Shown piece by piece: positions 9,904-11,940 of a stretch of 64,000 nucleotides of DNA. The number at the start of each line of letters is the position of its first letter. The stretch's first letter is position 1. The position numbers and the translations under genes are program-made. Where the stretch lies: assembly GCF_055900595.2 (NCBI RefSeq), contig NZ_CM148325.1, one strand, 5' to 3'. Below the pieces are notes generated by a model. It saw only the letters and a program-made list of their open reading frames with translations, was not told the origin of the DNA and ran no database searches.

Positions 9904-10079
9904 CTAAGCAATGGGATTTTAATACATAACGAGCATCTGTCCACGCAAGTTAACAATTGCCTTGGCTCGATATTTTGGTTTCTAGTGCATATATGCTGAT
10001 CTTCTCTTCGTTGATCTGATCTTACCCACCAATAGTGGACACAGGACTAAGTGAGTAAACTCTCAACCAGAGGTGACTC

Positions 10080-10379
10080 ATGACAAAACCAGTATCAATC
10101 AGCAAGAAGCCCCGTGAACAACATTCGCCTGAATTTCGTAACGAAGCCCTGAAACTCGCTGAACGCATCGGTGTGGCCGCCGCAGCCCGTGAACTCAGCC
10201 TTTATGAATCTCAGCTTTATGCCTGGCGCAGTAAACAGCAGCAACAAATGAGTTCGTCAGAGCGCGAAAGCGAACTGGCCGCTGAAAATGTCCGCCTTAA
10301 ACGACAACTGGCGGAGCAGGCTGAGGAACTGGCCATCCTCCAAAAGGCCGCGACATACTTCGCGAATCGCCTGAAATGA
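10080..10379 (+). CDS. IS3-family transposase OrfA (InsE-like helix-turn-helix / leucine-zipper protein)
   Basis: 99 aa [54 protein letters not shown]..., closely resembles IS3 OrfA. Confidence 0.85.
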
Positions 10380-11219
10380 AGTATGTCTTCATCGAAAATC
10401 ATCGGGCAGAGTTCTGCATCAAAGCGATGTGTCGTGTACTTCGGGTTGCCCGCAGCGGCTGGTATGTCTGGCTCAGGCGTCGTCACCAGATGAGCCTTCG
10501 CCAACAGTTTCGGCTCACCTGCGATGCCGCTGTCCATAAGGCATTCTTTGAGGCAAAGCAGCGATACGGTGCTCCCCGCCTTGCTGACGAACTGCCGGAG
10601 TTCAATATTAAAACCATTGCCGCCAGCCTGCGTCGTCAGGGGCTGCGGGCGAAAGTTCAGCCCGGTCAGCTACCGTGCACATGGCCTGCCCGTATTGGAG
10701 AATCTGCTGGAGCAGGACTTCAGTGCCAGAGGCCCGAACCAGAAGTGGGCGGGTGACATCACGTACTTGCGTACCGATGAGGGCTGGTTGTATCTCGCAG
10801 TAGTCATCGACCTGTGGTCACGCGCCGTCATTGGCTGGTCGATGTCACCGCGAATGACAGCACAACTGGCCTGTGATGCACTACAAATGGCGTTGTGGCG
10901 GAGAAGACGCCCGGAAAGCGTCATTGTTCATGCGGACCGTGGTGGTCAATACTGTTCAGGGGATTATCAGGCGCTGCTGAAGCGACACAACCTGCGTGGC
11001 AGTATGAGTGCGAAAGGCTACTGTTATGACAATGCCTGTGTGGAAAGCTTCTTTCATTCGCTGAAGGTGGAATGTATCCACGGGGAACGCTTTAGCAGCC
11101 GGGAAATAATGCGGGCAACGGTGTTTAATTATATCGAGTGTGATTACAATCGCTGGCGTCGTCACAGTGCCTGTGGCGGTCTCAGCCCGGAACAATTTGA
11201 AAACCATAATCTCGCTTAG
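10376..11219 (+). pseudogene. IS3-family transposase OrfB (DDE integrase domain), frame broken near 10640-10660
   Basis: Split into two overlapping frames (10376..10756 and 10524..11219); the second carries the DDE core ([23 protein letters not shown]...HADRGGQY...[11 protein letters not shown]). The break lies inside orfB, not at the orfA/orfB junction where the programmed frameshift belongs. Confidence 0.65.
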
Positions 11220-11940
11220 GGCCGTGTCCACATTACGTGGGTAGGATCAATTTTCCTGATGACCCCATCGACATAGTATTTTTTCAAAGCAAGAATTGCC
11301 TTCTCGCTATGTATTCCTGATAGCTTGATCAGGATATCAAAGTCTCTTTCAGATATATTCCCCTTTGTCATGTGTCACTCCATGAATCAAATTTCATAGT
11401 AATCAATCTTTCTTTGATCGACTTATAGATAATAAGATCAGAAATGATAAAAAAGTAACGCATATTTCTTCTCGTCATGTCTACTTATAAAATTCAAATG
11501 AACTAACCTGAACTACTTACACTGGAATATCATTATATTGGAATAATTATAAAACTGAACAAAATGGTCAATGTAATCTGGTTAATTTATAAATATTTAC
11601 ATTGCGTGATGATATTTAATTCCAGTGTTAAGTAATGTCACATGCCTATTATTGGTTACTACTTTGTAGGTGTTTTGGTTCGGCGTTAATATCATTGGTC
11701 ATAATCACCTGTGAAAGTTTATTCTTGAAATGTTATAGGTATATTACTTGCAATTAAAAATGAGAAATTTATTATTATTGTGTTTTGCAAATATAATAAT
11801 TAAAAATTTATTATAAATTATGATTAGAATTGACAATATAAAAGAATAATAAAACTCAATATGAAAATAATTATCATCTGGTTTGATACTTTTGCTGTTG
11901 ATTACAGGAATAAAGTGTCAGAATAATATTGTTATTGGGT

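Follow-up and report, generated by a model that had tools for sequence, protein, structure and literature searches.

A stretch of 64,000 nucleotides from contig NZ_CM148325.1 (NCBI RefSeq assembly GCF_055900595.2), which we call the window, carries at 10017-11249 on the forward strand a 1233-bp copy of ISEc16, an insertion sequence (IS) of the IS3 group of the IS3 family whose intact copies measure 1244 bp. The copy lies within a genomic island at argW, between defence genes on its left and an AT-rich stretch on its right. The sequence comparisons described here make it very probable that we are dealing with a transposase-defective ISEc16 copy that has become a fixed passenger of one Escherichia coli argW island lineage and that stands at the joint of an IS-anchored cargo loss. 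The element is made up of the following features.

10017-10042, + strand: left terminal inverted repeat (IRL), starting 5'-TG, the same as the IRL of intact copies.
10080-10379, + strand: orfA, 99 aa, open, with a Pfam HTH_Tnp_1 match (E = 1.2e-9).
10342-10346, + strand: A-AAA-G slippery motif for the programmed -1 frameshift from orfA into orfB, unchanged and identical in intact copies.
10376-10756, + strand: N-terminal part of orfB in the -1 frame, with HTH_21, reading ...RRQGLRAK.
10652-10656, + strand: scar of an 11-bp deletion, a single gap in the alignment to intact copies.
10656-11219, + strand: C-terminal part of orfB in the +1 frame, the DDE catalytic domain (Pfam rve, 5.8e-28; rve_2, 7.4e-22; rve_3).
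11224-11249, + strand: right terminal inverted repeat (IRR), ending CA-3', with all ISEc16 homology stopping exactly at 11249.

The element starts with TGATCTTACCCAC and ends with GTGGGTAGGATCA, and its termini, TGATC...GATCA, set its bounds exactly at 10017 and 11249. The imperfect TG...CA inverted repeats of the IS3 family are present, the IRL agreeing with the reverse complement of the IRR at 21 of 26 positions; they were taken from the alignment, their mismatches having broken the seeds of a repeat search that did not report them. Megablast against plasmids gave matches over the full length (1243-1245 bp) with 97.6-98.2% identity, and "IS3-like element ISEc16 family transposase" is the annotation of many of them. 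Compared with six intact 1244-bp copies, one of them from pc10-55 (L002:1501-2744), the window copy is 98.1% identical over 1244 aligned positions with the gap counted. The consensus of these six served as the reference for differences, and the window copy departs from it by 11 substitutions, three of which alter OrfA residues (K13E, T16S and K96N) and three OrfB residues. On this near-identity from end to end, the element is assigned to ISEc16 specifically. Its ends, orfA/orfB layout, slippery site and DD(35)E signature are those of the element that goes under that RefSeq/PGAP name on plasmids and chromosomes of E. coli and E. marmotae; apart from the substitutions, the window copy differs in the 11-bp orfB deletion and in having no full-length OrfAB, no target duplication and one fixed location. 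IS3 of E. coli K-12 (1258 bp) shares family and organisation but is a separate IS species, and its identity to the window copy, 80-90% at the nucleotide level in most E. coli genomes and ~90% at the right end, leaves the window copy much closer to ISEc16. A literature search on ISEc16 returned passing mentions only.

A sequence-only reading of the window had described orfA as intact and orfB as split into two frames around 10640-10660, away from the programmed frameshift site, and alignment to the intact copies bears this out in both coordinates and content. The reading frame runs to ...RRQGLRAK and then changes at an indel of 11 bp, not a multiple of 3, which lies ~310 bp downstream of the A-AAA-G motif and can be placed equally well after 10652, 10653, 10654 or 10655. 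The deleted block is CCAGCCGGAAG, with AAG on each side, and a deletion between such AAG repeats is typical of replication slippage, of which it would be a signature. The N-terminal part of orfB is native to ~10655 and is followed by 33 out-of-frame codons and a stop at 10756. With the DDE domain moved to the +1 frame by the deletion, no continuous OrfAB can be obtained through one -1 frameshift: translation from the slippery site stops at 10756, and the longest predicted frameshift product is ~225 aa without the DDE domain. Intact ISEc16 coding sequences carry the annotation "programmed frameshift"; in the window, the Rfam ALIL pseudoknot matches weakly at 10352-10455 (18.5 bits vs a gathering score of 50, E = 0.073). 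The DDE part keeps the motifs WAGD... and HADRGGQY and, as read from the translation, the DD(35)E-K spacing, while an A>G change at 10932 replaces T by A beside the second D, a change found among the sampled copies in only one other (L030). In another 11-bp-deleted copy (L031, ERZ25021408 NODE_11), three clustered bases, at the equivalents of window 10367, 10415 and 10498, equal the intact ISEc16 consensus and not the remnant. This may be due to gene conversion by an intact copy or, the assembly being one of short reads, to a mixing of reads.

An 81-bp query spanning the scar located the deleted form in 238 complete E. coli genomes, with one copy in each (228 at ≥99% identity and 10 at 95-99%), and the undeleted ISEc16 form, which shows as gapped alignments, in a further 424 records; the deletion junction was also found in assemblies beyond the complete genomes. 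The number of scar genomes is close to that of complete genomes in which the locus was found (left junction, 233; right junction, 236-237; any part of the joint, 243), all sampled deleted copies sit at this joint, and among them there was no sign that the deleted copy has spread. Overall, ~240 out of the 5,426 complete E. coli genomes have the island with the locus, among them O26 and O103 strains and their relatives, and PGAP/RefSeq already annotates "IS3 family transposase; frameshifted" in E. coli O26:H11 11368 and in AREA_505. Assemblies commonly contain spurious single indels in IS copies, and a sequencing or assembly error hiding a continuous orfB, which the sequence-only reading had itself considered, has this general experience in its favour and nothing specific to the present case. 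The change at hand is an 11-bp deletion and no homopolymer slip, and since the identical junction recurs in 238 independently finished E. coli genomes, we take the deletion to be real, with practically no probability left for an intact transposase. Given the missing full-length OrfAB, the ~225-aa product and the restriction of sampled deleted copies to this joint, the element is probably immobile, as had been suggested. "Non-autonomous" is the stricter wording for the remnant, because its intact inverted repeats leave mobilisation in trans possible.

The two flanks of the element are unrelated, and the right one begins inside a gene.

11216-11371, - strand: remnant of a PapB/FocB-like regulator gene, 51 codons, covering positions 19-57 of the 91 positions of the Pfam PapB profile (PF03333).
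9904-10016, no strand: left flank, the 113 bp 3' of a 786-aa gene, ending ATC and unrelated to papB.
7057-10016, + strand: segment with the 786-aa HsdR_N gene, absent from the intact-papB island of E. coli Eco_23-2667.

Of the 51 codons of the PapB-like remnant, 41 are native (11250-11371) and 10 are read from the IRR, and the full PapB domain is absent. Intact homologues, sought with the 41 native residues among 1.8 billion representative proteins, were found as 76-aa proteins in Salmonella enterica (P0014) and E. coli (P0018). The E. coli protein is 100% identical to the remnant at residues 1-41 and then continues ...ACFDSNLSQSYFSVAARKFELTLMLINELSGKIHQ, and the intact homologues have the C-terminal ...ACFDSNLSQSYFS... 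part that is missing from the remnant. Both loci share a context of yfdC, argW, integrase, AT-rich spacer, papB-like gene and AraC-like regulator, and the homology of the window to them starts at 11250, the first base past the IS, at 84% identity in Salmonella (flank segment 11250-11621) and 95-98% in E. coli. At the junction the intact gene reads ...AAGCT|ATTTTCCTGATGACC and the window ...GGATCA|ATTTTCCTGATGACC, so that the right end of the IS breaks the 76-codon papB-like gene after codon 41. The missing 35 codons were sought in the left flank in three frames, where nothing like them was found, and the left flank did not match the intact-papB islands either. The left flank was also tried as a source of the PapB C-terminus through a reconstructed read-through, which extended the Pfam alignment by at most 5 positions without a meaningful gain in score; the idea was dropped once the true C-terminus was known from the intact homologue. 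The same spot has been hit repeatedly: in AREA_505 (L003 6554-8970), an ISEc23 copy (IS66 family) lies 19 bp past the right end of the ISEc16 remnant and shortens the PapB-like remnant further, and five protein variants (P0001, P0003, P0005, P0008 and P0012) represent still other joints at or near the papB breakpoint.

What lies beyond the break can be seen in the one complete genome with an intact papB-like gene, that of E. coli Eco_23-2667 (NZ_CM176497.1), when its island is compared with the genes to the left of the element in the window.

7543-9903, + strand: 786-aa gene with an HsdR_N domain (Pfam), its 3' end 113 bp from the IS.
5883-6899, + strand: 338-aa gene without a Pfam or PADLOC match.
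321-5401, + strand: complete Shango defence system, comprising the TerB-domain protein SngA, the BrxC/D-like ATPase SngB and the DEAD/DEAH helicase SngC.

The Shango assignment has PADLOC E-values of 8e-278 for SngC, 1e-187 for SngB and 2.5e-65 for SngA, the last of which is cut by the window start and has 769 aa in relatives. From argW outward, the Eco_23-2667 island first has the integrase, the PapB-like gene, the AraC-like regulator and a 1311-aa SPATE-type autotransporter. Next come a chaperone-usher fimbrial operon (itself with another PapB-family gene), several IS elements, a further autotransporter and, with others, genes for HEPN and GNAT proteins; an FRG-domain gene and one with a protein-kinase domain follow, then an integrase fragment, and after it the 338-aa gene, SngC, SngB and SngA in the order and orientation of the window. 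The window matches this genome over 1-7056 at 98.5% and over 11250-14100 at 98.7%, and between the two matching blocks lie 46,054 bp in Eco_23-2667 vs 4,193 bp in the window (the 786-aa gene segment and the IS). Relative to the intact-gene island, 46 kb of adhesin and autotransporter cargo are missing from the window, and the right end of the IS appears as one exact boundary of this 46-kb difference inside one island family. The proposal of the sequence-only reading that the element marks a rearrangement or deletion point is upheld by the cut of papB at codon 41, the homology from 11250 onward, the unrelated left flank and the contrast of 46 kb with 4.2 kb. As for the slot of the 786-aa gene, it is taken in Eco_23-2667 by the FRG gene, the protein-kinase gene and the integrase fragment (NZ_CM176497.1 3331348-3334753), and this slot beside the 338-aa gene looks like a defence-gene hot spot within the island. 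In E. coli O26:H11 11368 (L001 8214-11887), another IS3-family element, annotated with a programmed frameshift and ALIL pseudoknot, interrupts the 786-aa gene, and IS66-family elements lie upstream in place of the Shango region.

As the simplest course of events, we propose that ISEc16 would have inserted into the papB-like gene at GCT|ATT|TTC and that the interval up to the defence module (the 786-aa gene, the 338-aa gene and Shango SngABC) would then have been lost through the IS. Two routes are likely: a local paste-in may have supplied a second, directly repeated ISEc16 copy with which the first recombined, or one IS end may have made a sloppy strand transfer. Either would leave a single copy with non-matching flanks. 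The 11-bp deletion would have arisen before this island lineage diversified. IS3-group elements duplicate 3 bp of their target. The window copy, whose flanks the sequence-only reading had pointed to as a check, is preceded by ATC and followed by ATT, without a perfect 3-bp duplication.

Several points weigh against this history. The other ISEc16 copies examined are likewise without matching flanks (five from the E. marmotae plasmid pEM148, a copy from pc10-55 and two chromosomal copies that are intact), and the missing target duplication is, taken alone, weak support for a rearrangement. No genome was found to hold the intact papB-like gene and the 786-aa gene together, so that neither the left endpoint nor the precise structure before the deletion has been observed directly. 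An independent exchange of cargo, in which the 786-aa gene replaced the FRG and kinase genes, may account for part of the 46-kb difference; the 11-bp deletion may precede or follow the 46-kb loss; and the probable immobility is deduced from sequence and distribution. An inter-element cargo swap, in which homologous recombination would have joined an ISEc16 copy in the papB-like gene to another beside the defence module on a different replicon or island, would also be expected to yield a hybrid IS whose flanks do not match. On pEM148, the 3-bp flanks GAG and TAT are cross-paired between different ISEc16 copies, which suggests frequent inter-copy recombination and, less firmly, a 3-bp duplication; such shuffling speaks for the swap, as does the absence of the 786-aa gene from the one intact island examined. 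In the Eco_23-2667 island, however, Shango and the 338-aa gene stand in the same order and orientation at 98.5% identity, so that an intramolecular deletion suffices. Nor does the left flank have a second context in 5,426 complete genomes, and the exact 786-aa protein was found in no other context, all 24 contigs read showing the same IS joint. A swap between elements is therefore unlikely in our estimation, though it deserves to be kept in view. Two further arrangements were seen on pEM148 (L004, L006): two of its ISEc16 copies are split at one common position by IS1414 with astA, with a 9-bp overlap, and nleF is bracketed by two inverted intact ISEc16 copies.

Contigs that have no IS at the joint were traced through protein variants of the PapB-like remnant. 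Two of them (L012 and L013) read ...CTCTTCGTTG|TTCCTGATG... and are without 10014-11252, that is, 1239 bp comprising the IS, ATC and ATT, whereas L020 and the 92-aa variant P0021 (5 contigs) read ...CTCTTCGTTTCCTGATG... and are without 1241 bp, with a TT overlap. IS-less strains include SRR10207506, SRR5438292 and SRR30008579 and those whose assemblies contain MDD6972892.1 and MDY6106893.1. In alignment to the intact gene, the IS-less alleles keep the papB breakpoint and have three papB bases (ATT) fewer than the IS-bearing allele, and their island flanks are 99.6-99.9% identical to those of IS-bearing islands, compared with 98.65% for the intact-papB island. None occurred among the 243 complete genomes with the locus, and no empty site came to light in complete E. 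coli genomes when either flank by itself, or the IS-less joint, served as the query. One candidate empty site (H164) was rejected, as it merely has an extra ISEc23 insertion beside the IS.

The existence of IS-less alleles in a few assemblies would suit a different order of events, in which an unrelated deletion first cut papB and the cargo, the IS inserted into this older joint later, and the ancestral empty site survives in the IS-less alleles. ATC and ATT differ only in their third base, and from the flanks alone a decayed 3-bp duplication is possible. An insertion, however, is unable to restore the three additional papB bases of the IS-bearing allele, and the IS-less joint is without ATC or ATT and hence offers no target that could be duplicated into the observed flanks. 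There are, moreover, two distinct IS-less joints, of 1239 and 1241 bp, their flanks are nested within the diversity of IS-bearing islands, and the IS would have had to land within 3 bp of the older breakpoint. An IS arriving at a pre-existing joint is thus very improbable. Because the papB breakpoint is kept, three papB bases are fewer and the flanks are near-identical to those of IS-bearing islands, the IS-less alleles are read as derived, secondary imprecise losses and not as ancestral empty sites. In terms of the proposed history, the dead IS would later have been removed in a few strains by imprecise deletions of 1239 and 1241 bp.

Comparable events are on record for copy-out-paste-in IS elements (IS629 with IEE; ISApl1), which show deletions of about IS length with 0-4 bp of microhomology as well as larger IS-anchored deletions (bioRxiv 10.1101/2023.06.07.543989). 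E. coli O26:H11 11368, one of the carriers of the locus, has IEE-type elements according to the literature. As with IS629/IS1203v and IEE and with the loss of ISApl1 from Tn6330, a large deletion is here bounded exactly by an IS end, and the later losses are of about IS length with 0-2 bp of microhomology; unlike in those cases, the window IS cannot supply its own transposase. That the IS-less alleles are traces left in nature where strand-switch or IEE-type excision acted on an IS3-family copy unable to make its own transposase, or that OrfA and the truncated OrfAB are kept as a transposition inhibitor, seems very doubtful. If the excision were of this type, it would point to trans-activation by another IS3-family transposase in the wild.

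Retention for function would in its broader form mean that OrfA and an OrfAB without catalytic domain repress ISEc16/IS3 transposition, or that the IS provides an outward promoter. The open orfA and the intact inverted repeats are compatible with this, as is the reported binding of IS ends by truncated IS911 OrfAB[149] (PMC1636345). Signs of selection are missing, however, with 6 of the 11 substitutions against the ISEc16 consensus altering amino acids, and as the island is at least 99.6% identical among carriers, its conservation reflects recent ancestry. The IS has been lost in some strains, and promoter-like sites are not enriched (11 found vs 8.6 ± 3.0 expected). We consider a retained function extremely unlikely.

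To the right of the joint, the window leads through the rest of the island into the core genome.

11372-12636, no strand: AT-rich spacer between the integrase and the papB-like gene, 1.27 kb, 27-34% GC, with equal spacing in intact E. coli islands.
12637-13854, - strand: tyrosine integrase of the island, with Pfam Arm-DNA-bind_3, Phage_int_M and Phage_integrase, annotated as 396 aa in relatives.
14003-14077, - strand: tRNA-Arg(CCU), argW, the island's integration site, with the synteny yfdC-mlaA-fadL-fadIJ.

Leftward from argW, the order is integrase, spacer, papB remnant, IS, 113-bp spacer, 786-aa gene, 338-aa gene, SngC, SngB and SngA, and the right part of the window is core genome with yfdC, mlaA, fadL, fadI and fadJ. 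The integrase is intact in the window; in some carriers it is a pseudogene, split or with an internal stop, for example in O26 11368 (L001 14621-15811) and one IS-less strain (L012 3545-4735). The sequence-only reading had set the element at a boundary between defence cargo and an AT-rich region. Its placement at a rearrangement joint stands, and the AT-rich stretch is now better described as the island's native integrase-papB spacer and not a product of rearrangement, because intact islands have it too. Within the spacer, 11942-12100 is 82% identical to Salmonella islands and is the only inner-spacer part so conserved. It is overlapped by a strong terminator-like hairpin at 11948-11968 on the - strand (within 11934-12027), which reads GCCTCCAC...GTGGAGGC followed by a T run. 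An Rfam scan of the spacer gave nothing above threshold; a weak, hairpin-driven Arrc14 match reached 31 bits vs a gathering score of 99.

All of the events proposed here belong to well-known classes, namely a slippage deletion in a transposase gene, an IS-anchored island deletion and a later imprecise IS loss, and with the pseudogene already flagged in RefSeq, the locus is a case of ordinary island decay. It illustrates IS-anchored island reduction with textbook clarity and has little weight beyond annotation, in which the element should appear as a pseudogene of ISEc16, and the 51-codon "PapB/FocB regulator" as what is left of a gene, fused to IS sequence. The difference between two versions of the argW island, a virulence type with the AraC-like regulator, SPATE autotransporter and fimbriae, and a compact defence type with the HsdR_N protein and Shango, is dated and explained by the joint, and the scar together with the joint provides useful lineage markers for the defence-type variant of the argW island.

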